In this document: one piece after another, positions 23,501 to 54,882 of the stretch | Layout: every line of letters starts with the position of its first letter | Numbering within the stretch: position 1 is the stretch's first letter | IMG/VR virus record: IMGVR_UViG_3300017747_001103 | Span: 1-54,882 of that record | DNA: 54,882 nt | Strand: one strand, 5' to 3' | DNA from: a virus | Lineage: Duplodnaviria; Caudoviricetes | Program-made: the position numbers and the translations under genes | The notes under the pieces: model-generated | The model's database searches: none | Told to the model about the DNA's origin: nothing | What the model saw: only the letters and a program-made list of their open reading frames with translations

Positions 23501-25102
23501 AAATTCAATACCATCAAAGTGCGGAGTTATTTTGCTTTTTACGTCATCCGTAAAGTCACCAGCATCAATCAGTTTGTTAAATTCACCAAACAAAGATTTT
23601 GCAGCAGTAACGTCTGAAGCGCTTGAAATGTCAGCAAGGTTTTCTCTAAACTGTTTAGCATATCCAACAACATCATTTGCGTAAGCGTTGTACGTTTGAA
23701 GATCAGGCTCTATTCCCTGTAAATTTTCATTATATTTATTTTCAGCTGTTTGTACTAAACCACTTTTTTGAGCAACTACATTGTCTTGAGCTTCTACATT
23801 TTTATATGCGGCAGAAGATAATGTGTCAGCAATCCCACTAAGCTTGGAGCCATTAACATCAGAAACATCTCTAGCAGCAATAACTTTGGGATAGAAAGCG
23901 TCACCAAGTTTATTCTCAATGGTTCCCATTGCCCTTTCAGCTGATTCAACATTAGCTTGGGCTACTGATTTGGCTACGTCTTTTGCTTTGTCTGCTTCAG
24001 ACTGAATTGAATCACGAGTTTCTCTTGTGGTGTCTACTAACCTTTGTGCGTTGTCATGATATTGGTTACGGGTGTTTTCTTCTTTTTCTCTAAGCGTGTT
24101 GTAATTTTTTTCAGCATTTTCACGAGCAGTGTTAGCTTTTTGTTCAGATTCTTGTTTTACTCGATTAAGTTCTCTTTCCGCATTATCACGAGATTGCGCT
24201 TGGCTTTGAATTTTATTATTTGCGTCACGCTCAACCTCTTCGCGTTTTTTATTTGCATTGCTTTGAGCAGTCTCAAAAGCTCGTTCTGCTTCAATTTTTT
24301 TATTAACTAAAGAATCCCATGAAGAGCCAGAACGGATTTCTGCATTATCTATTCTGTTTTCTGCTTCACGAAGGCCATTGCGTTTGTTTTCAATTTCACG
24401 TAGTGCGTCTTGATAACCGCCATTATCATTTAAGTGACGACCAGAATTTTTCCAGTTATCAAGGTCATTAAGTTTGTTTTGAGCTTCGTTAAACGTGTTA
24501 CGTTTATTATCGTAATCAGAGTTGTCTCTGAGATAATTTTCGTTCTCTGCTTTTTCTTTTGCTTTGTTGTATATTTCTTGAGAACCACGCAAATTGTTAA
24601 GTAGGTCTTGATACCCAGAATTTTGTTTTAAATAATTAACATTGTCATAGTCATGGACTGCCTTGTTATAGGCATCGTTAGCTTTACCTGACTTATCTAA
24701 AGTTGCTTTATATGCGTCACTCTCTTCAAACCATTTATTTGAATTTAAAAATGAATAAGCAGAGTTATATTTATCACGCGCAGATTTGTACTCTGAGCTG
24801 TCTTCTAAATATTTTCTATTGTCTAAAATGTCTTTAAGGTTTTTGTAATTTTCCAAAGACTTATTGTATGTATCTTTTACGGTATTGTAAGAATCTACGT
24901 TTAGGTAAGTTTTGTTTTCATAATCATTACGAATATTTTTTAATTTATTAGACTCATCGTTAAGAATTGATTTTAAATTATTGATTCCATCTTCAAGAGA
25001 CTTAAGACTACCTTTAGCCGAGTTGTACTTAGCCAAAGCAGACTTTGCCTTAGTGACGGCATTTTTAATATCATCAAGTTTTGGTAAGCCAGCAACTGCC
25101 AC
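20588..25102 (-). CDS. Large (1504 aa) putative internal virion/ejection protein
   Basis: N-terminal coiled-coil repeats, Gly/Ala-rich middle, Pro/Thr-rich tail, C-terminal RRGG. Confidence 0.65.
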   Translation of the reverse strand: MAVAGLPKLDDIKNAVTKAKSALAKYNSAKGSLKSLEDGINNLKSILNDESNKLKNIRNDYENKTYLNVDSYNTVKDTYNKSLENYKNLKDILDNRKYLEDSSEYKSARDKYNSAYSFLNSNKWFEESDAYKATLDKSGKANDAYNKAVHDYDNVNYLKQNSGYQDLLNNLRGSQEIYNKAKEKAENENYLRDNSDYDNKRNTFNEAQNKLNDLDNWKNSGRHLNDNGGYQDALREIENKRNGLREAENRIDNAEIRSGSSWDSLVNKKIEAERAFETAQSNANKKREEVERDANNKIQSQAQSRDNAERELNRVKQESEQKANTARENAEKNYNTLREKEENTRNQYHDNAQRLVDTTRETRDSIQSEADKAKDVAKSVAQANVESAERAMGTIENKLGDAFYPKVIAARDVSDVNGSKLSGIADTLSSAAYKNVEAQDNVVAQKSGLVQTAENKYNENLQGIEPDLQTYNAYANDVVGYAKQFRENLADISSASDVTAAKSLFGEFNKLIDAGDFTDDVKSKITPHFDGIEFKGTQVSTPETPASAKARQLALQGGDASLFSNIDPTTGLPLLNRDKFDSIVARYGNNVKGNGKARAAFAQEGWNMMSDSALLLQGPAILGLSTGSYHDGTGGIGSTTTGIVNSKGLKATDNDYLTAAKQIGLDGDSYTMPIKFVPAGYAYGQVEKPTSANSAEYTNPRTGETYLARINPKTKEFEQALDTKALYADISEKTKDLYYVANAIENVGANKATPHAGILYKANESGVLTPVLNEKNEPIVNYYEGERVHHAGASGQLAELMPLIQMAAMVFAPQLGGMLNSAIGGIQVSAAVAPTAFTMGVPAVTLAQTIGATGVSMLSGAIQNMVTSGLTGGDIGQAALTGAVGPALAGNSTQLLNRVGIDQSKVEAIARATNTSSQQVTNMLANAVTVGVTGTVLGDPNALENAATSLAGQYVGTQAQNLVYDAVKGADPKVIAATVNAAGNVSNIATQTLINGGDVAEALKNAAPAIITGAAKAGEAAGKVDGPGTATIVERSRYPEPTPDKSDLITLRSPELSSDTPTEIKDMIYSAYADPSVKIDVAQAMPVTAENIQQLTRAAQEKVAQSMLQAAANDPLYARSVTTESSIQALRQAGMYTLADGLVGIASMVTPGNIGQNTNEDQIMAEKMKQFLSPIADGTYDYTKKLSPVEVVAKYNVPELFTKILPGESISKDGQLILQDGKGSGLYVDKSGTLYDQYGNPAVQNFVPPNVTPLVAPEYPSTVPTILPNTTTAPVKNPAVPPSFVPYVLPTTIPTTTPATTPTTTPTTTPATTPTTTPTTMPETVPTTAPTTTPGTETAPKTETVPKTETTPATQTVPKTETTAATQPAPVTKPITDLIPITPPVNAIPSTPVTTTPVTTPTTVTPNVPPVTPPVTPPVTTTTDNKSDITGVLAALAGAFGSGKVSTGGLSQVPAGYTAVTTPLAKRPIGDLYPVSFTMMTPEEIAARSSTKIARRGGLVSIRQ
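20830..21300 (-). repeat. Pro/Thr-rich coding tandem repeats (PTTT; ETVPKT)
   Basis: 12-nt and 18-nt periodicity. Confidence 0.85.
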
Positions 25103-28877: not shown

Positions 28878-29507
28878 TTAGCTATCCATCGCAACAGCCT
28901 GACGATCACCCATACGCTGGACATCCTCAGTTTTAAGTGTCTGAATAATTTGCTGATACTGCGCCTGCCACATAGGTATGCGCTCATCGTTCTTTAAGAA
29001 CGGCATAGCCTGTAGCAAAGCGCCGTACAGCAGCGCTTGAGGTGCGTACTCAGTAAACCAGTTGGTTTGATTCGTGTCGTCCAGAGGCTGTAAGCGCTGG
29101 TAATACAGGATTTCAAAGGTATAAGCAGCCACAGGCGTCGGCGCTACTAGCCAATGTGTGTAGTCATAGTCTGCGTAATAGGCAGGAGTACCAGTAGCGG
29201 TTGCATCAGGCCAATATTCACGCAGATACTCATATTTGCGTAAGAAAACAGGTTGTCTTTCGCCAGAAACCACCACATTCATTGAGACTGTCTTGTGCCA
29301 ACGAGCTGGTTTTGCAATTATGGCTTCACCAATAACCATAGTGCTGTTATTTACAGTCAAGTTTCCAAGGAATTTGATTTCGCTGGCAATCACTTGCTCA
29401 GCTAACATAATAAAGGTAGGAATTTTGGCAAGCGTCTGGGAATCGGAGCGCTCCAAGTAGCTGGCTATATCATCTGCCAAAGACGTGTATGTCATTGAAG
29501 CTGCCAT
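28878..29507 (-). CDS. Head-tail adaptor (tail tubular A-like)
   Basis: IPTFIMLAE, GTPAYYA, VAPTP, TNWF...LLYGAL..A.PFLKND. Confidence 0.8.
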   Translation of the reverse strand: MAASMTYTSLADDIASYLERSDSQTLAKIPTFIMLAEQVIASEIKFLGNLTVNNSTMVIGEAIIAKPARWHKTVSMNVVVSGERQPVFLRKYEYLREYWPDATATGTPAYYADYDYTHWLVAPTPVAAYTFEILYYQRLQPLDDTNQTNWFTEYAPQALLYGALLQAMPFLKNDERIPMWQAQYQQIIQTLKTEDVQRMGDRQAVAMDS

Positions 29508-29568: not shown

Positions 29569-30045
29569 TCAAAGTAGATAAAGAGCGCGTTCATCCTTGC
29601 GTCTATTCTCAAGACCTCTAAGGACTTTGCCGCCAGCTTTTGTGTACTTCATAAACTCTTCTGCAGCGCCCTTGTAATCGCCTCTATTGTGCCTTTGGCG
29701 AAGCGTAGAACGTTGCAGAGTACCTAAGCCTACATTAAAGGAAAAACTGACCAGAGCGTCCATCCAGCCTTGCCTAGAGCCAGCACTAGGACAATATTTA
29801 AGAACTCCGCGCTCAAACCGCTCAAGGTCTTTAGCAAGTATGGCATCCGACTCTTCCATCGTAAATGTTCTGTTCCAACCTTCTGGAATTACCAGATTGT
29901 TGCGCTCTTCAAACGGCACCCTTGCATGACTCGGTTCAATTACATGGCCAACGCAAACAGTCCACAACCTAGCAGGGCATCGGTATGGCTTTAATCTGAT
30001 GCCCTCGTGATGGGCAATCATTTTGATAGCTTTTGGGCTAATCAT
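29569..30045 (-). CDS. Endolysin, GH24 lysozyme
   Basis: HHEGIRLKPYRCPARLWTVCVGH (E-x8-C-x5-T), DALVSFSFNVG, GLENRRKDE. Confidence 0.93.
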   Translation of the reverse strand: MISPKAIKMIAHHEGIRLKPYRCPARLWTVCVGHVIEPSHARVPFEERNNLVIPEGWNRTFTMEESDAILAKDLERFERGVLKYCPSAGSRQGWMDALVSFSFNVGLGTLQRSTLRQRHNRGDYKGAAEEFMKYTKAGGKVLRGLENRRKDERALYLL

Positions 30046-38149: not shown

Positions 38150-38490
38150 TATGGACTCTGACTCAAATTATCAAGATTGCCATTTTGTTCAGGTGTGGCT
38201 GTGTTCTGCTCAGGTGAAATAACAAATTCATTTGGTGCATTTGTTGTAATCCCTGTCGGATTGTCAGCCACGCTCTCATCAGGACGAGGGAACCGTAACG
38301 TAATGCGCTCTGTCTTCCGCGCAGGTAATCTATACGGGTCAAACTGATCCTTACATCCTTGGTCACACACCATCAACCCCGGAAAGTTCGGGTCTTTTTC
38401 TAACACGGCATGAGGACGCTTCATTTTACAACGATCACACACCGCAATTGCGATGTCTGAATAACCTCTAGTATCAAGAAATACTGGCAT
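38149..38490 (-). CDS. Small Cys-containing head-completion-like protein
   Basis: AVCDRC...GLMVC..GC.D, PRPD. Confidence 0.7.
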   Translation of the reverse strand: MPVFLDTRGYSDIAIAVCDRCKMKRPHAVLEKDPNFPGLMVCDQGCKDQFDPYRLPARKTERITLRFPRPDESVADNPTGITTNAPNEFVISPEQNTATPEQNGNLDNLSQSP

Positions 38491-39563
38491 TATCTTGTAT
38501 AGACTGAAATGTTAGGAGCCAAATAAATCGGCGATTTATCGCGCTCTTCCTGTTCAGCTTCCATTAGATACTGCATTCCCATCTTCTCTAAATAACCAAT
38601 TCTATCCATCTGAATGCCGGGCAGTTCTAGGCTCATCCTGTGAGCCAGCATCATTACTGTAGCCTCGTACCACCGCTGTGGAATCTCAAGCTCATCAGTT
38701 AGTGAGCCTACGTCCATAATTTGACGAGAGTACCAAACAGTCATCTGGATAAATGGGTCACTAGGCACAGGCCATAGGTATAGCTCAGGCACAGGGATAG
38801 TGCGGTTAAACCAATATTGAAACGGCTGATTAGCTGTGAAGTTCTTGTTTGGCAGGCTTGTATAGTCATCACGATTTAAACGAGCCATTGGTATTTCAGT
38901 GCTGTTGTTGCCAACGTAGAATTCGCGCAAGGCTAATGTCGTGCCGTTGTACACACGTACACGGTAGTACATAACAGACTGGCCGGGGTCTATATCCGTC
39001 CAAATCCATTGGTTGTCAGTAACAACTACCGCGCCAAGATCATCAAGGGTTGACCATGTGCTTCCGTCAGTCGAATACTCAAAAGTAACTGACCAAGTGG
39101 CAGAGCCGCCGCCAGACACGTAAGGCAAAATACCAATACTGCCAGCATAAATAGGAGTGCTTGTGCCATAAAAAACTTGGATGTTACCGTTTGCTGAGGT
39201 CTGTTGGCAGAATGTGTCTACGTCGCCGTCGTAAACATTTGCAACTACGCCGCCTGCAGAAGAGGTGTAATCACCTGAAGGGCGGTTCATCTTGCGATAC
39301 AGAGCGTTTAGGACGTCTACAGCGCCCAAAGGAAGGCTGTATATGTATTTGTCGGCAGACAGCCCTATAACCTTCTTATCAATCGCCCAGTATTGAATGC
39401 CACGGTTAATTAAATGCGACAGAAGAAAGTACAAAGACTGACGTGAAGCTACCTGCTGCTCAGACGTCAGCTCCTCAGCTAACTTTCCACAACGACGAGC
39501 ACCGTGGTCTATCAGCTCTTGGACATTTATTACTGTCGTACTAACTGTGCCTGAATAAGCCAT
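38490..39563 (-). CDS. Adaptor/ring-like protein with inserted discoidin-like domain
   Basis: NRGIQYW, LNRDDYTSLPNK, YLWPVP; insert VYDGDVDT...EYSTDGSTW...YYRV. Confidence 0.65.
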   Translation of the reverse strand: MAYSGTVSTTVINVQELIDHGARRCGKLAEELTSEQQVASRQSLYFLLSHLINRGIQYWAIDKKVIGLSADKYIYSLPLGAVDVLNALYRKMNRPSGDYTSSAGGVVANVYDGDVDTFCQQTSANGNIQVFYGTSTPIYAGSIGILPYVSGGGSATWSVTFEYSTDGSTWSTLDDLGAVVVTDNQWIWTDIDPGQSVMYYRVRVYNGTTLALREFYVGNNSTEIPMARLNRDDYTSLPNKNFTANQPFQYWFNRTIPVPELYLWPVPSDPFIQMTVWYSRQIMDVGSLTDELEIPQRWYEATVMMLAHRMSLELPGIQMDRIGYLEKMGMQYLMEAEQEERDKSPIYLAPNISVYTR

Positions 39564-41638: not shown

Positions 41639-42670
41639 TCAACAAGCACTACCGCCGCGCTTTTTACCCGGAGGCGAAACTGTTTTGCTTACTTCGCGCT
41701 CAGTTGTAGTCACCGCACCTTGACCAGTCATGCCACTTAAAGCTTTCTTGATCTTACGTGGGATATACATCAACGCATCACTAACGTCAGACCGAAGTCC
41801 TTCGTTAAATTTGCGCTCATCAGCATCAAATGCATCACGCGCAGCTGCGTTAGTACGCGCCTGTGCATCACCACCATCAGCCATCTTTTTTGCAGTAGTT
41901 ACCTTCCCGCCCTTTTTAAAGGTGCCAGATAACTGGTTGATGCTTACTGGACTAGAGGGCTTTTTACGCCCTTGAGGCATCGCGACGGGCTTCCCTGAAT
42001 CAACAACTCCCCCCGCCGCGTAAGCTTTTTTTGGGGCACCACCGTTCTTGTAGCCACCCGCATTAGACTTAGCCACGCCACCAGTTGCATAACCACCGCC
42101 ATTGCCGTTCTTCACGCCGCCAGTTTTGGCAGGTGAATGATCAGTTTTGGATGTGTGCATCTTCGTATTACGATACTCGCCACCTTGGTTCTCAGTATTG
42201 ATGATCCCGCCAGAAGCTAGACCACCCTTCTTGTAACCACCTTGACCATTAACAACGCCGCCAGTAGCAAACTTCTTACCAGCCATCGCCTTCTTGATCA
42301 TTGCACGGTCTTGAGCTGCGTCATCATGAGCCTTGCCACCCTTTTTCATCATTGGTGCCGATGGGGGTGCCATAGGATCAGGAGAAGCCATAGGAGGACG
42401 CATAGGCGGCTTCATTGCCTTGCGACGCATTGCCATTGAAGGGCGCTTAGGGCCAACCACTGGAGCAGCAGAACCGCCCACAGGGCCTGATGTAATGCGC
42501 GGAGCACCCATCATTGCGTCAGCCATACTAGGATCACCACCCATAGCCATCTTCTTGGCTTTAGTTGTAGATCCACCCTTCTTCATAGCAACAGCACCAC
42601 CTTTTTTAAGCTTCAAAATAACTGAAGGCTCGGTGGTTTCCATTTTTACCATTGGTTTAAATTGACCCAT
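41639..42670 (-). CDS. Low-complexity Lys/Gly/Met-rich protein with more than 12 xxxGG motifs
   Basis: KKGG, AMGG, ATGG, ASGG, AAGG, ADGG, KRGG repeats. Confidence 0.85.
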   Translation of the reverse strand: MGQFKPMVKMETTEPSVILKLKKGGAVAMKKGGSTTKAKKMAMGGDPSMADAMMGAPRITSGPVGGSAAPVVGPKRPSMAMRRKAMKPPMRPPMASPDPMAPPSAPMMKKGGKAHDDAAQDRAMIKKAMAGKKFATGGVVNGQGGYKKGGLASGGIINTENQGGEYRNTKMHTSKTDHSPAKTGGVKNGNGGGYATGGVAKSNAGGYKNGGAPKKAYAAGGVVDSGKPVAMPQGRKKPSSPVSINQLSGTFKKGGKVTTAKKMADGGDAQARTNAAARDAFDADERKFNEGLRSDVSDALMYIPRKIKKALSGMTGQGAVTTTEREVSKTVSPPGKKRGGSAC

Positions 42671-44705: not shown

Positions 44706-45248
44706 CTAGCCAGCAAAAGATGGCGCAGGCAACGGTTTGTCCAATTGCTCAATGCCCTCACCCTCAACTTGACCGAGTGCTCTACCTCGGCTATCACGTC
44801 CAACGGACTGCTCTGCTTGTAACTTGATCTTATTCGCTTCTTCCAGTGGTGCATCGTGATGGAAGTGCGCCATAATTTCTTGATACTGATCCATAGGGAT
44901 CTTAAACAAAAGCATTTCGTTACACGCAATGTATCCAGTATGTTCGCCAGCCTTTACACGGTAATTTTCAAACCCTTTTATATCCTCAGCTTGCACTGGG
45001 ACATAACCGAGACGAATCCGTTTGTCGATGCCGTCGTAACTATTGGTTGTTGATAACCAGCATAAATGCCAGCCGGGTATATCAGGTGCATTAGGCAAAG
45101 CGCTTTGTGTCCACTCATCTTTCCACATCTTTCGACGTTCTTCAGACGACACAAAAGTTTCTTCGGGTGCCTCACGAGCTGAGTCATGACTAACGCGAGA
45201 TGTTTCGCGTCCACCGGCAGAGAGAGATTTCTTTAAGCGAGAATCCAT
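44706..45248 (-). CDS. Conserved head-module protein
   Basis: LPNAPDIPGWHLCW...LGYVPV...LLFKIP. Confidence 0.75.
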   Translation of the reverse strand: MDSRLKKSLSAGGRETSRVSHDSAREAPEETFVSSEERRKMWKDEWTQSALPNAPDIPGWHLCWLSTTNSYDGIDKRIRLGYVPVQAEDIKGFENYRVKAGEHTGYIACNEMLLFKIPMDQYQEIMAHFHHDAPLEEANKIKLQAEQSVGRDSRGRALGQVEGEGIEQLDKPLPAPSFAG

Positions 45249-45250
45249 GA

Positions 45251-46240
45251 TTAACCCCTTTGATTACGTTGACGTGATTCCATTGCGTAGCGCTTTATCA
45301 TGCGGTTCCTTTTTTCAGGATCGTCCCACATGCCAGCATCTTTCATAGCAGTTACCTGCTCACGAGACAGAGTGAATGAATTTCCACTTCCACCTCTACT
45401 ACTCGACACTTCGCGCCCCGAACTGGTTACAACGCTTCTCGGACGGCGGTTTACTGGTTTCTCATCAGTGAAGTCAGTATAACGGTTAGGTAATACTTTT
45501 GACAAGCGGTTGTCAAGCTCTTCCCAATATTCTGAAGATTTTGGATCCCAACCCTCATCAGCAAGGGCTTGGTCTACAGTCATAGCTATGCGCGAGTCCA
45601 TGTCCTTAGCCTGCGCGTTGTACCAAGGGTTAGCCTCCATCCACTTTGCTGCGTACCGCTGCAGCATAGGGTCTTGCTCAATAGTTTGAGCTTTGTCAGG
45701 CGTAACCATGCGCTTCTTAACGCCCTCAAGGTTTTCAGACTGCTGACGAGCGTCGTACCACATCTCCTGAGCACTAGCTAACAGGTCTCCATCCATTGAC
45801 TCAGTGGCTTCCTTCATCTTGCGCTTTGCGTATTCAATACGCATTTGTTGATCCTCAATAGCCTTATCCATACGGGCTAAATCGGCACCAGCTGTCTTCC
45901 TCTCTACAACAGAAAGGCGCTCAAGTAGCTCTTGGTTCTGACGTTGCAGGTTTTGCAGGCGAACGTCTTTCTCAGTTGCAACTTGACGGTGATATTCCTT
46001 ACGAGCTTTGCGTTTATTGCGTTTAGCAGCACGCATAGCCTCAGCTTCAGGGTCTATGTCTCCAGTAGCGGCAATCTCAGCAGCTTCTGCCTGTGCATCA
46101 GCCTCGTCCTGCTCCTCTGGGGTAGCTGGAGCATTATCATCATCATGTATTGCCAGATCATCAGGCAGATCAACGGTTGCTGAACCGTCAACACCTTCCT
46201 TAACAAATAAGTCTGGCTCTTTATTAGCATCTGTACTCAT
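45251..46240 (-). CDS. Scaffolding protein
   Basis: Acidic N-terminus, coiled coil, W...NPWY, SSEYWEELD.RL; upstream of MCP. Confidence 0.75.
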   Translation of the reverse strand: MSTDANKEPDLFVKEGVDGSATVDLPDDLAIHDDDNAPATPEEQDEADAQAEAAEIAATGDIDPEAEAMRAAKRNKRKARKEYHRQVATEKDVRLQNLQRQNQELLERLSVVERKTAGADLARMDKAIEDQQMRIEYAKRKMKEATESMDGDLLASAQEMWYDARQQSENLEGVKKRMVTPDKAQTIEQDPMLQRYAAKWMEANPWYNAQAKDMDSRIAMTVDQALADEGWDPKSSEYWEELDNRLSKVLPNRYTDFTDEKPVNRRPRSVVTSSGREVSSSRGGSGNSFTLSREQVTAMKDAGMWDDPEKRNRMIKRYAMESRQRNQRG

Positions 46241-46671
46241 ACGAATGCCCTCATTTCTAATGGATTGCCCGTTACTCGGGTGATTACTTCATGGTCATTG
46301 AGAACCATAAAGAGAGCTGGATCTTCATCAGGCTGGCCATCTACTGGCACCTCCCAACGATCACCGCCCCACTTCGGAACGCGAATATAGTCGCCTACAC
46401 GAGCCCATGCCCCTTCAGGCCAGTCTTCCATCGTGTCGCGCTTCTTAAACGCCAGAGGGCCTATAGCAATAACCTTGGCCACTTGACCATTCCATTTTTC
46501 CGTTTCCCGAGTCTCTTCCACTAGGATAATTCCACCATTCGTTGTCTTCTTCTTAGTGCGACGAAGTTGTACAAGTATGCGTGCTCCGAGGGGTTCATTA
46601 CCGGGGTCTACAGTGGGGAAAGCCCACGCTATGTCAGCCTCGTTAGAAGCTACCGGTTCATTCATGTTCAT
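46237..46671 (-). CDS. groES: GroES-like co-chaperonin
   Basis: PLGARILV, TNGGIIL mobile loop, KVIAIG, VGDYI, LNDHEV. Confidence 0.85.
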   Translation of the reverse strand: MNMNEPVASNEADIAWAFPTVDPGNEPLGARILVQLRRTKKKTTNGGIILVEETRETEKWNGQVAKVIAIGPLAFKKRDTMEDWPEGAWARVGDYIRVPKWGGDRWEVPVDGQPDEDPALFMVLNDHEVITRVTGNPLEMRAFV

Positions 46672-47021: not shown

Positions 47022-49514
47022 TTAGCTCCTTAGGTTACGTTGTGCTGCCTCTTGCAGCGTTAAAGCAGTTTCCTGCTGTTCTTGACGCAGCTTCACCTCG
47101 TCTACCGTCAACTCGGCTTCCTTCATGCGTTCTTTTGTTAGGTTGTTCTCGGCGTTCATAGCCACTTCAACCTGCAACTTATCTTGCGACATCTTCATGT
47201 CTGCCTGATCTCTAGCAGCACGGCGTTGTGTCTCAGCCATTGAAGCCTGCAATACAGCGTTGGCTTCTGGGTCTTGGATCAATCCCTTCTGCTGATCTGC
47301 CTGCTTCTGCTGCATCTGAGCTAACAACTGACCTAACTGTTGCAGACTTGGCATGACCTGAGCAAATACCTGTTGGGCATCCATCTCAACGTGAGCTGAA
47401 GCTGCGGCAATCGTCTGGTCAATGCTCTTCTGCATCTTGCTTTCAGCATATTTCCTAAGATCAAGATCAGTTCCTTGGGTAACGTAGGCATTTGCCTGAT
47501 TTGTGTACCAGAGAAGCATGTGCTGCTTAATATGCTCAATCTCTTGGGGCAAGCACTTCTGGGCAAGCATAGGGTTACTACCAAAGATAGGGTCTAAGGC
47601 GAACTTCAGGTGCGTTTGTATGTGCGCTAGGTGGTCTTGGCTTGGATAAGCAAAGGATGGACGACCCAACGCCATAGCAGCGTTCTCATCAATCGCATTC
47701 ATCTCCGTTGGTTTGACTGCAGTAGGCATCAACTCACTAGGATTTGGCACTTTCATCTGTTTTAGAGCCCTTGAGTACACCGCCCTACGGTCAAACAGGT
47801 CAGGAGCTTCCTTAGCAAAGGCAATAACCGCCTGAGTCTGCGCCATACGCTGTGTTTCAGAGAAAATATGGGGGTCAGATACAGGAACCACGTCAGAATT
47901 GCGTTTAAAGTCCTCTCTGGTGATCGGCAGCTCGGCAACCATGTCACCACGGCGCTGGTCATCCAGATACCAGCGGTTAATACGACCCAAAACACGCAAA
48001 ACACGGGCTTGTGAGTCATGTAAACGCGCATGAATAGCTGAGAATACTGCAGCACCCTGCTCAATCAACGCTTGAGTAGTGCCTACAGGCGCATTAGAGG
48101 TGATGTCAGCGATCTTTTCCTCTGCGGTGGTCACTACCCCCTTAGCTGCGGTCGTAAGCCAGCCTAAAAGCTCCATAAGCACTGGAGAAGGTGGGTTAAA
48201 TGGCATAGGCATAGCGATTTTGCGTATGTCGTCAATACCGGGGGAGCCTTCCAACTCAATAACCTGCGTCACATCTATCTGATCAGACTGACCAGAGATT
48301 TTGCCGCCCTTCAACTTCATCATTGTGGCGCTGTTGTTGATGTGTGCGGTATCCAACAGAGCACGTAGAGCGCCAGTCAGAGCTGCAGACATGCCGCCAA
48401 TCAGATGAGGCAAGCCAATAGCATAGGCACCACGCCAAGGGATGAACTTAAACTCAATCAGCCAGTCCAGTTTGGTCAGTGTCTCGTCGCCTTCTTCCCA
48501 GTTACGGTACAAGCCAATGACTTCAGACGTCAAATCGTCAATCATCAGGATGTACGGGGCTAGTTCACCCTTGCTGCGGTCGTCATCCTCCATCTCCAGC
48601 CATGTATAGATGTGATAAACAGTACGAATACCGTCCACATTGTCAGACATGCTCTTGCCTTCGATCTTGTCGTTAGCCTTTTCTGGGCCTGATTGCTCAG
48701 GATCTAACGATGCACGCACCAAAGTAATGTCACGGTACAGGCCACGGTCTACTCGGCGCTTGAATTCAAACTCTGTGATCTCATGAACTTCCGTTACACG
48801 CTGTGCGGTGTAGAAGTTACCAGCCGCGAAGGGCAGGTAGACGTTATCAATAGGCACAAACTCAGCACATGGGCGCTTTTTCTGCTCGTCGTACCACATC
48901 TTCATGTACTGTGAGCCACCCAAAGGCAGCTGTGTCAGCAGTTGTTCCTGCTCGTCGCGGTACTCTTCGATCTGCTCAGTCAGCTGCCAGTTCATGTAGT
49001 CGCGCTTGCGCTCAGCTACCTCAACCTTCTCAGGCGTTGACTCACCTAAGACTTGTGATCTGACAGGGCCATCAGGTGGGAAGAGCTCTTTGATTGCACG
49101 GGAAGCAAAGTCAATACAGCCCTCAGCCATAATAGGATGCACAACCTTGGACGCACCATTGAAGTTAGCACCACCGGGGGCGTCATTACCCATACCAGTA
49201 CGGCGCAGGCCATCTTCATACTGCTTGTCACGTCCCTTGCGGTCTTCCTTGTCCTTCTCAATGTACTCAATGAACTCAAGGGCAAGGCTGCTAAGGTCTA
49301 AAGGGCTGAACTCTTCAGACAGGTTGGCGTAGTAGTCTTCATCATCTGATGGGCCTTTGAAGCCATTCATATGAACAACGACTGAGCCATCATCCATCTC
49401 TTCAAGTTCGCCCTCTTCTTCGTCTTCCATGTCGACGATAGCACCGCCATCAGGCGTTTTAGTCACTCCGTCTATAAAGCGCCCAAAGTTTGGGTCTACT
49501 GGCATTTCAGGCAT
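47022..49514 (-). CDS. Portal protein (P22-like)
   Basis: 830 aa; GASKVVHP, ELFPPDGPV, RDYMNWQLTE, APVGTTQALIEQG, C-terminal Q-rich coil. Confidence 0.9.
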   Translation of the reverse strand: MPEMPVDPNFGRFIDGVTKTPDGGAIVDMEDEEEGELEEMDDGSVVVHMNGFKGPSDDEDYYANLSEEFSPLDLSSLALEFIEYIEKDKEDRKGRDKQYEDGLRRTGMGNDAPGGANFNGASKVVHPIMAEGCIDFASRAIKELFPPDGPVRSQVLGESTPEKVEVAERKRDYMNWQLTEQIEEYRDEQEQLLTQLPLGGSQYMKMWYDEQKKRPCAEFVPIDNVYLPFAAGNFYTAQRVTEVHEITEFEFKRRVDRGLYRDITLVRASLDPEQSGPEKANDKIEGKSMSDNVDGIRTVYHIYTWLEMEDDDRSKGELAPYILMIDDLTSEVIGLYRNWEEGDETLTKLDWLIEFKFIPWRGAYAIGLPHLIGGMSAALTGALRALLDTAHINNSATMMKLKGGKISGQSDQIDVTQVIELEGSPGIDDIRKIAMPMPFNPPSPVLMELLGWLTTAAKGVVTTAEEKIADITSNAPVGTTQALIEQGAAVFSAIHARLHDSQARVLRVLGRINRWYLDDQRRGDMVAELPITREDFKRNSDVVPVSDPHIFSETQRMAQTQAVIAFAKEAPDLFDRRAVYSRALKQMKVPNPSELMPTAVKPTEMNAIDENAAMALGRPSFAYPSQDHLAHIQTHLKFALDPIFGSNPMLAQKCLPQEIEHIKQHMLLWYTNQANAYVTQGTDLDLRKYAESKMQKSIDQTIAAASAHVEMDAQQVFAQVMPSLQQLGQLLAQMQQKQADQQKGLIQDPEANAVLQASMAETQRRAARDQADMKMSQDKLQVEVAMNAENNLTKERMKEAELTVDEVKLRQEQQETALTLQEAAQRNLRS

Positions 49515-49526
49515 GATTCATCCTCT

Positions 49527-52500
49527 TTAAATTGCGTTATAAGCTGCGCCACCTTTGGCGAACCGTTTAGTCAAAGCTTGGTGAACCATGTCATCAAGGT
49601 TAACAGTTACATTCTTTGATAGAGCTTGAGCTACTAAGTCGTCAAGGTTGATGACACCACTTTCAGCCATGTTTACTGCGCCGCCTTGGGCTTTGTTTTG
49701 TGGCAAATACTTCTTCACAATTGGCTCCCACTCTTCACGGGTCATAAGACCATTTTTTAATTCTCCAGCCCTTCTTGCGGCGGCAATTGCAATCATACGG
49801 TCAGAGGAAGAAGCATCAAAACTTTGCGGAATAAAATCTTTTAATGAGTGATGTGCAACGTCATACAAATCAGTATGGTGCATATCACCAACGCTACTAA
49901 AATTTCCTGACTTTACAAAGTCTTGGACAAATGGGATGTATTCGGGGTTAGGCTTGCGGTTGTTCTTACCTTTAATCTCTAAGATTTTTGATGGCATTGC
50001 TTTTTTTGCCATGTTTATAGCAATGTCTTCAATGTCTTTACTTGTATATCCATTAGGTAATCTTTTAGCTTCTTCTTCCGCTAAAGCCATATATTTCTGA
50101 ACCTCTTCATGCCTTGGTGCATATTTATTAGGCTCAACCTCAATCGTTACATGCGGCTCACCCTTAGCATCACGCAATGTATATATCTCAACCTCGCCAT
50201 TAAGTAATGGCTCACAATGACCAGCGCCACCAACGCAATGGCGCATCATGTCGCCTTCATACTTGGTGGCTTGCCTTACAAACTTCTCTGCCTCTTCATC
50301 AGAGTAACCTTCAGGGCGTTTAATCTGTCTCCAGCTAACACCGTTAGGATTGTTCTCTGGGTACTCTTTAAATGTATGTGTAGCAGGATTGTTAGCAACC
50401 TGAAGGTCAGACTTAGTCTTCTGTACGTTACGCCATGCGCTAATCTTCCCAGACAATGCAGACACATCGTCTACCGTCATCTTCTCTAAGTCTTTTGGAG
50501 TAATCTTTAAATGTTTTGGAAGTACAGAGGCAGGATCCATAGCCTCTTTTAGCTCGTCAATCATGTGACGGAACTCAAAAGAAACATCGCTATATGAGTC
50601 CAAATCATAAACAACATCATCTGGATTAAGTTTAGTTAACCAAGGATTTCTTTCAAGCGTATCTGGATCGCTTAGCTTTTGTTTTACTTTTTGAGTTTTC
50701 ACCTCAGCATCAACGGCTCTTTCCCATTTCTTAGATGCTGGGTGCGTGCCAAGTGGCTCACCTTGGACGCCTGCACGCTCTCTCTTACCGCGTAATCCCT
50801 CCCCAAAACCTTTAGAGCCTTCAGTATAATCAGCCCAACCATGTTCAGGAATGGTTACGTGAAACAAGCCTTGCGATGCTATGTATTCTTCGTCAGCAAA
50901 CTTTTCCCTAGCTTTCTCTAAGTCACCCTCAGACAATGTTGTGTCTTTGCCTGCTGCTTTTGCCTTAGCTATGTCAGCTTCCATCTTGGCTAATCTTGCT
51001 TGGTTTGCTTCTTTCAGCTTCTCAGCCTCAGCAGCACGGCGCTCGATGCCTAAACGAATAGGGTCTTCAGCCGTCCCCATCTCATTCTTAATGTATGGGT
51101 GAAGCTTCTTATCAATCCATTTACCAACAGCAAGATCAGTTGTTTGGTTTGGGGTAAGTTTTGGCAATAACTCAGGCAACCACCCGTCTCTAAGCAAAGA
51201 TTCATTTTGCTTATCTATTAAATCTTGATTCCAAATAGTTGTCTCATTTTTGAGCCTTCTGGGCACAAACTCAGAAGAATTATTAAGAAAGTTCCCACCT
51301 TTAGGCTTGATGATGTTCATACGTGGGTCAACGCCGTACTTGCTGGCAATGTCTAACGCCATCTCAGCTGCAGTAGGGGCAAGCTTCTTAGCGCTAGCCA
51401 CAAGAGCACGACCAGCAGGCGCTAACTCTTCGCCAGTAAGCGGCATAAATTGCCCAAGCTCTTGAGCTATCTTTGCCTCATGCGAATCACCAGCCGATGG
51501 CAGTATGGTGTCTAAGTCTTCCATTGTTGGAAGTTTGAACGCAGGCGGTGTTTTATAAGTCTGCGGGAATGTCTGACCTTTAGGCTTGCGCTCCATCGCT
51601 GGCAACGCACCTTCAAGGTCGCTCATACCTTCAATAATATCGCCCGGTATTCCTGCGGTTCCTATAACTCGACCACGTAAGCCACCAGCCAACATATTGA
51701 ACAGGCCAGACATAGCACCAGTAAAGACATCATTAGTGTCTGTCCATACACCTGTGCGACCTTTTTGTAAGTTAGCGTCAGCTGACCACTTCAATGGGAA
51801 TAGCTGAGATACATCACGCTTCTCAGGTATGCCACCTTCAGCTAACCCGCCTTTCTTCTTGCCTGTCAACTGCTTGATGCGCTCACGGTATTCGTTAAAC
51901 TGGTTGATGTATTGATCGTCTACCAATTGATGCGGGAATACTTTCTGGATAGTCCCAGTAAAGTCTGATGGGTCTTTGGTGGTAGCAATATGTTGAGCGG
52001 CATCAGGGTTGCTAATAACAAATGGGGTCAATACTTCCTGTTGCCCAATCGCATCTCCAAGTATGCGGTGACTGTATGTGTTATGCGGGTTACCAGCTGC
52101 CTCAACCAATGCACCCGGCTTTAACTCACCAGTCATCAGGCCAGTCATGTTAATTTCCATGTCCCGCAGGAAAGGCTCAGTGATAGCGTATTGAATATCT
52201 AAACCGTTTGGTAATCCTAAAGGCTGTGTAACCTTTGGGACTTTCATTCGATTGTTGAACCATTTACGCAAAGCAGTATCAGACTTCATAACTTCCATTG
52301 CCGCTTCTCTATCAGCTACGCCGGGCCAATGCGGGAATGTAATAATCTCTTTAGTTTTTGGGTCTTTATAGCCTTTAGCAATAATGCTATCGAACATATT
52401 AATCTTAGCTGGATCAGCCTTAGACCAATCAATCGCACGCAGGTTAGCGTCAGCAAAATGCATAGCAAAGTTATTTGACATAGGCCCCATCGCAAGATGC

Positions 52501-54053
52501 GACCCAATGATTCTGTTGGGCTCATATGCATCAGCAAGCCTGTCAACCTTGCTTTGTACGTTCTTAGCAGGGACTTCCGTTGACTTCCAGAACTCAGGCT
52601 CAGGCAAATGTTTTTGTCCCAAGCCGTATAAAGCGCCACCTTGTTGCTCAGAGTCTATGGGGAAACCTTCAAGCTCATCAAGAATCTTGTTTGATACCGT
52701 CTGATCACCGGGAAACGACACGATTATGTCGCCCTTAGTTGGGCTGTAGGTGCTCTCCTGAGCTACCGTGCCATAGGGAGTTAGTTTGTAGTTGAGCTTC
52801 TTGACTCGCTCCTGCTCTTTCATTGAACGCCCAGCAAGGTTCTTTGTGTCTTTCGCCTTACCAGTTAGGACGTGCTCACCAAGCATCTGCCTAGCAACAC
52901 GCTCAGCTTGCGCGTTAATGAAGTCGGAAGACATGTTTGCGCGTGGCAGAACAAGTGGCAGAGCATTGTCACCGCTATGCGTCAAAGCCTTCATTGCCTT
53001 CATTGCCTTCTTAGCAGCACCACCAACGCCCATCTTCTGGACGCCACGCTGCATTGCGCTATGAACTATCTCGTCTAAGTCAATTACGCCGCCCTTAGCC
53101 TTGTTGATAGTCTTTGCGATCTGCCCCAACATCTCAGCGCTAGGCGGTGGTGGGCTGTTTGACGTTTGGTTGCCAAAGTTGACATCAGTATTAAAAAAGT
53201 TAGGCATGTTTGCAGCGCCGCCCTCAACAGAGCCGCCCTCAGCAAAAAGTGGTGGTAGTTTACGCGCCTTAGTCCAATCAGGAATACGATCCTCTTTGTT
53301 CGTAAAGCGTTCTTCAGGTATAACTAGGGGCTCATCGCCTATTTGCTCTATCAACGCTTGCAGGTAATCTTCTTGGCTTCTGCGTGGGAATGGCTCACGC
53401 AGGTTCGCTCTTGGGAGCATACGCCATAATGTGTTCTCATCACCAAGCTCTTCTAACGCTACGTTGCGATGACGGCCTTCATGACCTGATACAAATGGCA
53501 ACTTACCTTTGTTCTTATTCAATTCAAGAAACGGGACATCTGAAGCGCCGCCACCACCGGGTGACATCTTTTGCATGTATGACTCTATTGCCGCACGATA
53601 TGGGTCTGTCAACGTAGCTGCATATTTTTGAAACTCAGCAGGGTTAGCAACCATCATGGCAGCTGCATTGTCGCCACCAAAAGCCTGACGCAAAGCCTCT
53701 TCTGTGTATTGATTCTCAAGGTTCTTGACCTGATCAGCCGCACGTTGCACACGCTTAGCGCCGTACTCGCCCTTACTCTGGCGTATAGCCTGCTCTACGT
53801 TTGATACCTTGCTGGGTATGATGACGGATGGCGCTTGAACCGCCTCATCCTCTTTGCCTAGCGTCTTCTTAGCCTTGGCTATAGTCTTTTTGCCCTTCTC
53901 AGTCGGCAGGGTATGAGGCGCATACGCAGCCTCCTGCGCTGCCTTCCTAGCCGCCATCTCAGCAGCTATAGCTTCTTGTGCCGCCCGACTACCAGCTGGC
54001 ATCTTTGACAGGAGTTCAGCAAGAGGGGCAGCAATCTTAGAATAGTTAGGCAT
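49527..54053 (-). CDS. Large polyvalent-type multidomain protein (ParB/Srx-like, unknown and PcfJ-like modules) with xxxGG linkers
   Basis: HEGRHR near aa191; EGDMMRHCVGG...IYTLRD.KGEPHVTIEV...EIKGKNN near aa1266-1370; lies between terL and portal. Confidence 0.7.
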   Translation of the reverse strand: MPNYSKIAAPLAELLSKMPAGSRAAQEAIAAEMAARKAAQEAAYAPHTLPTEKGKKTIAKAKKTLGKEDEAVQAPSVIIPSKVSNVEQAIRQSKGEYGAKRVQRAADQVKNLENQYTEEALRQAFGGDNAAAMMVANPAEFQKYAATLTDPYRAAIESYMQKMSPGGGGASDVPFLELNKNKGKLPFVSGHEGRHRNVALEELGDENTLWRMLPRANLREPFPRRSQEDYLQALIEQIGDEPLVIPEERFTNKEDRIPDWTKARKLPPLFAEGGSVEGGAANMPNFFNTDVNFGNQTSNSPPPPSAEMLGQIAKTINKAKGGVIDLDEIVHSAMQRGVQKMGVGGAAKKAMKAMKALTHSGDNALPLVLPRANMSSDFINAQAERVARQMLGEHVLTGKAKDTKNLAGRSMKEQERVKKLNYKLTPYGTVAQESTYSPTKGDIIVSFPGDQTVSNKILDELEGFPIDSEQQGGALYGLGQKHLPEPEFWKSTEVPAKNVQSKVDRLADAYEPNRIIGSHLAMGPMSNNFAMHFADANLRAIDWSKADPAKINMFDSIIAKGYKDPKTKEIITFPHWPGVADREAAMEVMKSDTALRKWFNNRMKVPKVTQPLGLPNGLDIQYAITEPFLRDMEINMTGLMTGELKPGALVEAAGNPHNTYSHRILGDAIGQQEVLTPFVISNPDAAQHIATTKDPSDFTGTIQKVFPHQLVDDQYINQFNEYRERIKQLTGKKKGGLAEGGIPEKRDVSQLFPLKWSADANLQKGRTGVWTDTNDVFTGAMSGLFNMLAGGLRGRVIGTAGIPGDIIEGMSDLEGALPAMERKPKGQTFPQTYKTPPAFKLPTMEDLDTILPSAGDSHEAKIAQELGQFMPLTGEELAPAGRALVASAKKLAPTAAEMALDIASKYGVDPRMNIIKPKGGNFLNNSSEFVPRRLKNETTIWNQDLIDKQNESLLRDGWLPELLPKLTPNQTTDLAVGKWIDKKLHPYIKNEMGTAEDPIRLGIERRAAEAEKLKEANQARLAKMEADIAKAKAAGKDTTLSEGDLEKAREKFADEEYIASQGLFHVTIPEHGWADYTEGSKGFGEGLRGKRERAGVQGEPLGTHPASKKWERAVDAEVKTQKVKQKLSDPDTLERNPWLTKLNPDDVVYDLDSYSDVSFEFRHMIDELKEAMDPASVLPKHLKITPKDLEKMTVDDVSALSGKISAWRNVQKTKSDLQVANNPATHTFKEYPENNPNGVSWRQIKRPEGYSDEEAEKFVRQATKYEGDMMRHCVGGAGHCEPLLNGEVEIYTLRDAKGEPHVTIEVEPNKYAPRHEEVQKYMALAEEEAKRLPNGYTSKDIEDIAINMAKKAMPSKILEIKGKNNRKPNPEYIPFVQDFVKSGNFSSVGDMHHTDLYDVAHHSLKDFIPQSFDASSSDRMIAIAAARRAGELKNGLMTREEWEPIVKKYLPQNKAQGGAVNMAESGVINLDDLVAQALSKNVTVNLDDMVHQALTKRFAKGGAAYNAI

Positions 54054-54055
54054 GT

Positions 54056-54882
54056 CTACACCGCATAAGGGTTGGTTCGCTTCCGACTGGCGTAGACGTA
54101 GTCGTCATCGTCGTCGTCTGGCGGTTCAGGGTCAATGTCCAAGAATCTAGCATCCCGCAAGTATCTCAGAGCCTGTGTACAACTGTCCACGAAATCATCA
54201 TGGGTTGAATCAGGGAAACTGCATATCTGGCTTACGAACCCCTCAGCCCAGTCCCTTACGTATCCTTTACGTTGAGTGCTCTCAGGTATCCACACGCGCT
54301 TGTGAGCAATAATGTTGGCGACAATACTAAGTCGCTGAATCTTATCGGCTCTGCCGGGGTTGTATGCCCTGACTGGGAGGTGAGCTCGTTGTAAGTCTTG
54401 GATAAGTGATATACCCGAAGCCTTGTCTTCAATGAGTATAAGGTCAACCTTTTTGCCACCGACAAAGTTTCCTCTGCCTTCTTCCTCGGGATCAGACCCA
54501 AACGATACTTTGAATTCCTCGATAACCTTCGGACGTAGATCCGGGTACTGTAGCCTGTCTTGCCATGCGTCAATGAGCATGACGGCCATTGGCCCATCAA
54601 GTGGTTTAAAAATGCCCCACGTTGTCGCCGCAGTCGGGTCATTGACGGTCTTCTCCGTGTAAGCACAGTCATAGCTTTGGAGTACAAACTCAAATTTAGG
54701 GAAGGGTTTATTACATGGCCACAGTCTGAACATGTCACGCTTAACGATGCCAGACTCCTCAGGGTCGATCAGCTCAGCCTCAATCTCCTGCCTGCCAAGG
54801 CTAGTGCCCTCGTATTGTAAGATTTGCTTCTTGAAGTTGTCAGCTAGGTTAGCTATGTTGGCGTAGGTTGAGGCACGGGTTA
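54056..54882 (-). CDS. terL: Terminase large subunit, 3' part (RNase H-like nuclease)
   Basis: QSYDCA, LIEDKASG, FPDSTHDDFVDS; in frame with 736..1 across the circular junction. Confidence 0.95.
   Translation of the reverse strand, partial: TRASTYANIANLADNFKKQILQYEGTSLGRQEIEAELIDPEESGIVKRDMFRLWPCNKPFPKFEFVLQSYDCAYTEKTVNDPTAATTWGIFKPLDGPMAVMLIDAWQDRLQYPDLRPKVIEEFKVSFGSDPEEEGRGNFVGGKKVDLILIEDKASGISLIQDLQRAHLPVRAYNPGRADKIQRLSIVANIIAHKRVWIPESTQRKGYVRDWAEGFVSQICSFPDSTHDDFVDSCTQALRYLRDARFLDIDPEPPDDDDDDYVYASRKRTNPYAV
54760..54882. repeat. Terminal direct repeat, right copy
   Basis: Identical to 1-123. Confidence 0.97.

Follow-up and report, generated by a model that had tools for sequence, protein, structure and literature searches.

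The window analysed here is a whole 54,882-nucleotide (nt) stretch of DNA from a virus of the Caudoviricetes (IMG/VR record IMGVR_UViG_3300017747_001103), and our subject is P0001, a protein of 1508 amino acids (aa) encoded on its minus strand between terL and the portal gene (49527-54053, stop codon included). An earlier note on this DNA, made from the letters alone, had described an open reading frame (ORF) of this length and position, and it does exist. We consider it probable that P0001 is an accessory cargo protein of the polyvalent type, which occupies a hypervariable terL-portal slot and is built on a framework of leader and GG-helix peptides that serves for module exchange, capsid loading and delivery to the host. 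The framework comprises the leader, flexible connectors that carry hydrophobic-[A/K]-x-GG and then short helices of acidic, amphipathic character, and a tail of like design at the C-terminus; the cargo is made up of modules A, B and C. Relatives of P0001 keep this framework but differ in their modules, which have been exchanged, reordered, gained or lost, and the exchange points lie in connector-coding DNA. Modules would be exchanged by homologous recombination; the protein would be a late product that is taken up into the capsid by means of the leader and GG-helix peptides, acting as hinge-plus-docking signals, and would enter the host with the DNA, where its modules may act as early effectors. 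Processing at GG could also occur, although it is not needed by the data.

The Ala/Lys-rich leader (aa 1-69; 53847-54053, minus strand as all parts of the gene) is followed by module A (aa 70-280; 53214-53846), for which an alignment of 14 sequences has an invariant GHEGRHR..AL and an invariant C-terminal LP..[FY]A.GG. Connector 1 (aa 281-362; 52968-53213), with GG321, the first LD helix (aa 323-334) and GG344, leads to module B (aa 363-736; 51846-52967), which is predicted by AlphaFold2 from 36 aligned sequences to be a single globular alpha/beta domain (predicted local distance difference test (pLDDT) 89.7, predicted template modelling score (pTM) 0.86) and ends in ..KKGG. Connector 2 (aa 737-912; 51318-51845) is about 180 aa long and contains GG740, GG790, a Gly-rich hydrophobic stretch at about aa 778-805 and two peptides that are invariant in 9/9 close relatives. 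It is followed by the PcfJ-like module C (aa 913-1452; 49698-51317), which starts with a near-invariant KPKGGNW that includes GG919, and by the tail (aa 1453-1508; 49530-49697) with GG1457, two LD helices and GG1501. In a second AlphaFold2 model (aa 309-1508, 35 aligned sequences, mean pLDDT 71), B is folded at aa 363-732 and C at aa 913-1452, with pLDDT mostly 75-90, and pLDDT falls below 50 at aa 309-362, 733-912 and 1453-1508. The sole secondary structure in these low-confidence parts consists of short helices, the three LD motifs included (aa 327-334 and 346-359 in connector 1, aa 1470-1479 and 1486-1498 in the tail). Because these regions combine low pLDDT with short helices only, the model places GG321, 344, 735, 740, 790, 1457 and 1501 in flexible connectors. 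The view that GG sites divide the modules, put forward in the earlier note, holds for most of them but not for GG472, invariant in the B alignment, and GG1275, nearly invariant in the C alignment, both of which lie within confident folds, nor for GG919, which opens fold C.

A word-indexed search gave 153 relatives of P0001, and a BLAST map was made for the best 120. The modules occur in the orders A-B-C, B-A-C, C-B-A, B-C, B-A and C-B; P0001 itself has A-B-C, P0012 and P0015 have B-A-C, and P0028 and at least 11 others have C-B-A. Extra ART-PolyVal, ParB_N, GP88 or DUF6973 modules are present in some relatives, ART-PolyVal and ParB_N as separate modules. When 45 representatives were scanned for domains, being every third of 134 new B-bearing relatives, PcfJ was detected in 11, ART-PolyVal in seven, LPD23 in three, and a GDSL lipase and DUF4214 in one each.

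Connectors are better conserved than the modules that they join. In the close relative L058, with terL 98% and portal 96-97% identical, B is 24% and C 32% identical, as against 82% for aa 737-870 and 59% for the tail, and the same pattern is found in L059 and L060. Across close relatives the tblastn identity of aa 737-870 is 78-82%, compared with 24-38% for B; what had been taken in the earlier note for a low-complexity part is in fact the 180-aa low-confidence connector that includes this stretch. When nine close relatives are aligned, the columns without variation are concentrated at aa 735-755, 889-899 and about 1463-1477, and connector columns stay invariant even where B or C has been swapped for an unrelated module (P0098, P0064, L059). 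The leader is 65-75% identical in relatives that differ in the module next to it.

At the DNA level the flanks of the gene are 82-92% identical to those of close relatives, and inside the gene similarity is limited to islands. These cover aa 734-756, 887-921 and 1455 to the end in L058, where similarity runs onward into the portal gene; in L053 they extend from terL to aa 280 and then cover aa 735-782, 892-901 and 1457-1467. L060 has similar islands plus most of C (aa 975-1391) at 75%, and in L059 the similarity of terL carries on as far as aa 52. Of the island edges, those at aa 280, 734/735, 921 and 1455/1457 fall within 2 aa of GG278, GG735, GG919 and GG1457, a coincidence that is a description and not a test because the four relatives compared are not independent. 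A recombination breakpoint within B at about aa 617, as in P0005, was also considered and discarded, as the substituted stretch resembles a diverged B-like domain. Exchange at conserved linkers is strongly supported by the sequence comparisons, and the suggestion that modules are exchangeable there is borne out by the reordered modules, by the DNA islands edged at GG and by the better conservation of the connectors. The terL-portal locus, which the earlier note had proposed to compare among relatives, has swapped modules and conserved connectors.

In 51 of 51 B-anchored viral contigs the B-bearing ORF lies between terL and the portal gene, as far as the contig includes these flanks. A portal-anchored IMG/VR set was also drawn up, in which 591 relatives were found among 600 matched stretches and 80 were kept, 71 of them holding both terL and portal. 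Across these loci terL is 38-98% and portal 61-96% identical, the terL-portal gap ranges from 1256 to 8161 nt, and in 31 of the 71 tblastn at E<=1e-4 detects no part of P0001. The slots of some relatives hold merely 416-476-aa proteins. In named phages the slot contains two ORFs (HTVC027P), an 890-aa ORF (MW202545) or an 825-aa 'PcfJ-like protein' (DSL-LC04); the interval holds nothing but a tRNA in Caulobacter phage RW and is empty in Roseobacter phage CRP-902. Given this range of size and content, the dissimilar loci and the empty slots of RW and CRP-902, the slot gene is best regarded as accessory and hypervariable. The same empty slots, small slot proteins and dissimilar loci speak against P0001 being an essential structural or ejection protein, comparable to the T7 core proteins or phi24B gp47, that forms a trans-envelope conduit and whose modules serve entry. 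Its size, its place among head genes and the Gly-rich hydrophobic stretch within the flexible connector would all suit a conduit, and gp47 has been proposed to be an ejection protein of this sort (bioRxiv 10.64898/2026.04.10.717836). A separate 1504-aa giant protein of the tail region is the better candidate for such a role, and we think it very improbable that P0001 fills it.

GG dipeptides are found in P0001 at aa 126, 166-169, 273, 278, 321, 344, 472, 735, 740, 790, 919, 1275, 1457 and 1501. Those given in the earlier note are present, at positions about 3 aa higher than it listed, and 126, 166-169, 472, 790 and 1275 were missing from it. It had also reported an LDxxV helix occurring three times, and this is correct (aa 323-334, 1467-1478 and 1484-1494). 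When motif counts were compared with 5000 shuffles of P0001, three LD-helix patterns (0.02 expected) were obtained in none of them, the seven copies of [AK]xGG (1.7 expected) were matched in five, and 16 or more GG, the number observed against 8.5 expected, occurred in 46. The GG and LD-helix motif of connector 1 is kept in 18 of the 120 relatives. Module A ends in ..[FY]A.GG in 14/14 sequences and module B in ..KKGG in 222 of 223 domains, and the ART and ParB_N modules of relatives are likewise followed by ..A.GG. Around 1189 unique GG sites from 119 slot proteins there is enrichment of H at -4, of M/K/Y/F at -3, of A at -2 and of V at +2. A GG lies in the last 70 aa of 104 of 119 non-redundant slot proteins, compared with 50 of 188 control ORFs from the same loci, and the usual slot-protein C-terminus consists of a basic-GG and 6-40 residues, often as an acidic amphipathic helix.

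Slots with several ORFs are informative about the tail. Two slot ORFs of at least 100 aa are present in 24 of 92 non-redundant loci and three in a further five, and every long ORF has both a conserved N-terminus and a GG + helix tail to itself. In 71 of 223 cases a GG + helix tail alone follows the B domain. Since separate ORFs each keep such tails, 'leader - cargo - GG-helix tail' may be seen as the functional unit, with a tail that would be active itself, and we read the tails on separate slot proteins as favouring a docking or loading signal, which would account for them no less well than a cleavage site. In three sets of two-ORF slots (L018-L020, L028-L045, L124-L136) the first ORF has a near-identical tail, GG-EIT.DDL.LEER[KP]L, and the second a tail of the form GG...N.D.M..EL...K; the ORFs overlap by 4 nt, and the last codons of the first tail may double as the second ORF's ribosome-binding site. 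Loading of diverse cargo into an HK97-fold shell by short terminal peptides is familiar from the internal proteins of T4, with their capsid-targeting sequence, and from the cargo-loading peptides of encapsulins. The same logic is proposed for the leader and GG-helix tails, with no similarity in sequence. The capsid-targeting signal of T4 lies at the N-terminus and is cleaved off by a prohead protease that has been identified.

The tails also bear on the possibility that P0001 works as a late cytoplasmic enzyme complex, for example on DNA or in assembly, which is never packaged and whose connectors are flexible linkers or recombination arms only. Many invariant polar residues in B and C, as in enzymes, would agree with this, and co-transcription with late genes is no proof of packaging. 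Nothing in the present data supports binding to the portal, and a complex prediction with the tail (aa 1450-1508) and a portal monomer weighs neither for it nor against it. A pure linker role, however, fails to explain why slot proteins encoded by separate ORFs conserve their short C-terminal GG + helix tails, and there are relatives with ART-PolyVal and LPD23, domains of proteins that are considered to be delivered. It is therefore hardly likely that P0001 stays in the cytoplasm of the cell in which it is made.

The GG motif is not confined to the slot. A 343-aa protein encoded directly downstream of the capsid gene (41639-42670, minus strand) is composed nearly throughout of such repeats, and has at least 12 copies in the forms KKGG, MA.GG, FA.GG and YA.GG, an invariant N-terminus and a C-terminus of ..KKRGG plus three residues, and at least 496 relatives of it are found in IMG/VR. 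Of five related records MW202545 has it and RW, CRP-902, HTVC027P and DSL-LC04 lack it, so that it occurs in one of three slot-bearing and neither of two slot-less records, a sample of five that is too small for a conclusion. The 1504-aa giant protein of the tail region (20588-25102, minus strand), with no Pfam or PHROG match, has a Pro/Thr-rich C-terminal part that ends in ..RRGG plus six residues, a basic-GG tail of the kind seen on slot proteins of relatives, and may be an internal or ejection protein. A 180-aa protein encoded between the portal and capsid genes (44706-45248, minus strand) is 62-99% identical across 54 loci and has an N-terminal ..SAGG and invariant W-H-x-C-W-L-S-T-T-N, C-N-E-M and His130. 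No known family or PDB entry matches this protein, which is a candidate for an unrecognised head-assembly enzyme.

The presence of one motif on three structural-region proteins points to something that reads them all, be it a binding site or a protease. There is some chance, although we would put it clearly behind the reading of P0001 as polyvalent-type cargo, that hydrophobic-[A/K]-x-GG, with its acidic helix, is the recognition element of a dedicated and previously undescribed virion cargo system, that the DNA encoding it serves as homology arms and that B is a new enzyme fold. One machinery would then read the motif on slot proteins, on the GG-repeat protein and at the C-terminus of the giant tail-region protein, and could be either a docking site within capsid or portal or a Gly-Gly-specific maturation protease of unrecognised fold. 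With the motif DNA acting as homology arms, any effector domain might be plugged into a delivered protein.

Release of the modules by cleavage, as the earlier note envisaged, would make P0001 a true polyprotein, in which a protease, from the phage, from the host or of an unrecognised fold in P0001 itself, cuts after hydrophobic-[A/K]-x-GG in the capsid or after entry, so that modules are freed and tails trimmed. GG-specific maturation proteases are known from adenovirus and African swine fever virus, and the GG motif described here may be likened to their sites. A protease would be consistent with the near-complete invariance of GG at the C-terminal ends of A and B (14/14 and 222/223), with conserved positions on both sides of it (M/K/Y/F at -3, A at -2, V at +2), with the copies in the 343-aa protein that is encoded next to the capsid protein and at the C-terminal end of the 1504-aa giant, and with the conserved 180-aa protein, of no known family, with its invariant His and Cys. 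Processing of polyvalent proteins by peptidases has moreover been proposed in the main text of Iyer et al. (PMC5512222). Yet no peptidase family was found in P0001 or in 38 ORFs scanned against Pfam, nor in 18 ORFs scanned against PHROGs. The 304-aa capsid protein matches a capsid profile over aa 6-299, and since the match starts at residue 6 there is no removable N-terminal domain in the capsid protein and a prohead protease is not implied. In addition, confident folds enclose GG472 and GG1275, no Cys of B is invariant, and the helices after GG are themselves conserved, also in the tails that separate slot proteins keep. Cleavage at GG is possible but unsupported, and we regard a polyprotein as unlikely.

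The identity of the modules could be narrowed down to different degrees. Against Pfam, P0001 gave a PcfJ match only, and against PHROGs nothing; PDB sequence and profile searches with P0001 and with alignments A1, A2, A3 and A8 found nothing credible. Modules A and B match no Pfam family, the LPD families included, and for B this holds even at E<=10. There is no sequence match to B in the PDB, and Foldseek returned no fold match at E<=1e-3 (best template modelling score about 0.13); the Protein Atlas gave no usable match for it. In BFVD, however, 17 predicted structures match it; all belong to uncharacterised proteins of phages, among them one from a Flavobacterium phage that carries the annotation 'Structural protein'. 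A profile of B searched against 1.84 billion representatives recovered 1391 clusters at E<=1e-3 (928 at E<=1e-10, 293 at E<=1e-30). The proteins are about 430-2400 aa long, and B may come first, lie centrally or come last in them or, in some cases, make up nearly the whole chain. B is a large domain family without a match among solved folds. The proposal that Foldseek be run on the separate segments was followed for B and for aa 309-1508; B and C are folded units in the models, without a PDB match at E<=1e-3.

For module A the earlier note had suggested a ParB- or Sulfiredoxin-like fold from the sequence HEGRHR. The motif is there (aa 191), and the invariant GHEGRHR..AL can be compared with the Gly-x-His-Arg..Ala motif of the ParB/Srx active site. 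None of the 14 members of A matches a ParB family at E<=1, however, and a PDB profile search gave neither ParB nor Srx. The ParB_N domain that Pfam detects in relatives is a module distinct from A, and aligning the two with hhalign gave a weak match (probability 51%, E=1.6e-4) over merely 22 columns around the motif. In the Protein Atlas, A has a 0.78 lead to an ART-PolyVal cluster alone, which is under the useful range. The ParB label, which comes from this motif, is a lead and not a result.

The PcfJ-like character ascribed to the C-terminal module fared better, with reservations as to score. PF14284 (PcfJ) matches P0001 at aa 1263-1311 (50121-50267 of the window), the part of C that corresponds to the family core, with E=1.4e-4 and 22.1 bits in the whole protein and E=4.7e-5 and 23.7 bits for C alone, and so misses the 25-bit gathering cut-off both ways. 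Relatives score above the threshold, and as the homologous module of P0033 reaches 39.9 bits, homology of C to PcfJ is likely. Nearly invariant HC..HC and D..H residues are present in C. In the Foldseek search of the aa 309-1508 model against the PDB, without a match at E<=1e-3, the weak matches to C were all to GNAT-type acetyltransferases (best E=0.054), so that a likeness to these enzymes is a lead that comes from the model. Literature under the name PcfJ offered no function for the family, the results being unrelated papers on the pCFJ plasmids of Caenorhabditis elegans.

Phage polyvalent proteins were described by Iyer, Burroughs, Anand, de Souza and Aravind in 2017 as likely packaged, with two to fifteen distinct globular domains in one polypeptide (PMC5512222, main text). 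The domains of their network include ART-PolyVal, the LPDs, MPTase and a DdrB-like ParB among others, ART-PolyVal and LPD23 being named for these proteins (PMC5512222). P0001 resembles them in having several unrelated globular domains, in its neighbourhood of virion genes and in its extensive domain shuffling: folds B and C and the conserved module A recur independently in relatives, the phage is of the portal-terminase type with the gene beside virion genes, and relatives carry ART-PolyVal, ParB_N and LPD23. It differs in that neither MPTase nor another peptidase was found and no hallmark domain exceeds the Pfam threshold. A second comparison is offered by the MuF / SPP1 gp7 head proteins, which are fused to polymorphic toxin domains according to the main text of the same paper (PMC5512222). 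They share with P0001 a link to head genes and the combination of a constant part for incorporation with exchangeable enzymatic cargo. No MuF-like domain was detected in P0001 by Pfam or PHROG, its gene lies upstream and not downstream of the portal gene, and in place of a single C-terminal toxin it has several cargo positions, the constant part being short flexible peptides and not a folded domain. The third is gp47 of phi24B, a 2811-aa polyvalent protein with LPD5, LPD1 and LPD38 domains and a MuF-C metallopeptidase, which was found in virions by proteomics and for which ejection is proposed (bioRxiv 10.64898/2026.04.10.717836). Both are giant multidomain proteins, with no sequence relation between them; packaging has been seen for gp47 and is presumed for P0001. 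From the late packaging operon, the ART-PolyVal and LPD23 domains of relatives and the phi24B precedent, we infer that the modules are virion-delivered effectors, which is plausible by analogy.

What sets P0001 apart from known polyvalent proteins is its short-peptide framework, together with two or three domain families for which neither a structure nor a function is known. As the words 'linker', 'glycine' and 'low-complexity' are absent from the main text of Iyer et al. (PMC5512222), neither the GG + helix framework nor its coincidence with breakpoints would have been described there. In the papers searched we came across no account of the terL-portal slot, nor of a GG + helix grammar, and the slot is not mentioned in the passages covered of PMC9599517 and PMC12753301.

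Several points weigh against the view of P0001 as polyvalent-type cargo. That P0001 or its close relatives are in virions, or are ejected, we infer by analogy. P0001 itself has no hallmark polyvalent domain above the Pfam threshold, PcfJ scoring 22.1 against 25 bits, and 'PcfJ' is absent from the main text of Iyer et al. (PMC5512222). About half of the island edges (aa 756, 782, 887, 892, 901, 1467) lie away from GG, in addition to the dependence among the four relatives noted above. B-like modules of close relatives that are 24-38% identical could reflect fast divergence in place and not replacement. A protease site would likewise agree with the strict invariance of GG and with the occurrence of the motif in two further proteins of the structural region.

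The two ends of the window share an exact overlap of 123 bp (1-123 and 54760-54882), and terL bridges the junction, which shows the phage genome to be a closed circle of about 54.76 kb. The C-terminal part of terL lies at 54056-54880 (minus strand) and the N-terminal part at 2-736, beyond the circular junction; in relatives the two fragments correspond to a single terL gene. P0001 starts 2 nt past the terL stop and ends 12 nt ahead of the start of the portal gene (47022-49514, minus strand; 830 aa, phrog_1216, E=2.8e-15). The ribosome-binding site of the portal gene, AGAGGA, falls within this 12-nt gap, after the P0001 stop, and GG1501 lies more than 30 nt upstream of the portal start; the idea that the GG near the C-terminus is a by-product of this site was discarded. 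Downstream on the same strand are the genes for the portal, a GroES-like protein, a 329-aa scaffold-like protein, the 180-aa and a 190-aa protein, and the capsid protein, and the P0001 gene is part of this late packaging operon.

Megablast against the phage collection gave zero matches. By portal the nearest records of the collection are the Manatee Spring metagenomic phage MW202545 (63% identity) and the Caulobacter phages RW, KcrB, RLK and GB2A (51%), followed at a greater distance by Roseobacter phages CRP-901 and CRP-902, Phage DSL-LC04 and Pelagibacter phages HTVC027P and HTVC023P (about 30%). The lineage is a widespread aquatic one, kin of HTVC023P-type pelagiphages, Phage DSL-LC04 and Caulobacter phage RW. 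The GroES/Cpn10-like gene (46237-46671, minus strand) stands between the portal and scaffold-like genes throughout the group, MW202545, DSL-LC04, Caulobacter phage RW and HTVC027P included (among loci L001, L138, L139 and L141). In RW (L138, 2445-5247) terL is annotated in two pieces with a gene for an S-adenosylmethionine (SAM)-dependent methyltransferase between them, and a tRNA-Val takes the place of the cargo slot of relatives. Elsewhere in the window two proteins match the SU10 adaptor family (28878-29507 and 38490-39563, minus strand), one of them also with a sub-threshold match to an F5/8 type C domain; a phage lysozyme is encoded at 29569-30045 and a Sf6-type small terminase at 1524-2051.

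If P0001 is a cargo protein of the kind proposed, a very common group of aquatic phages would carry a plug-and-play delivery cassette, of which the constant part is short loading and linker peptides and the variable part host-directed enzymes. This would provide a concrete rule, open to testing, for the construction, loading and diversification of polyvalent proteins, and hydrophobic-A/K-x-GG plus helix would become a signature by which packaged proteins may be recognised in uncultured phages. Large uncharacterised domain families, such as B with its 1391 clusters and no match to a solved fold, would be candidate enzymes of host takeover or counter-defence, and the connectors may be usable as natural junctions for engineering cargo into phage particles.

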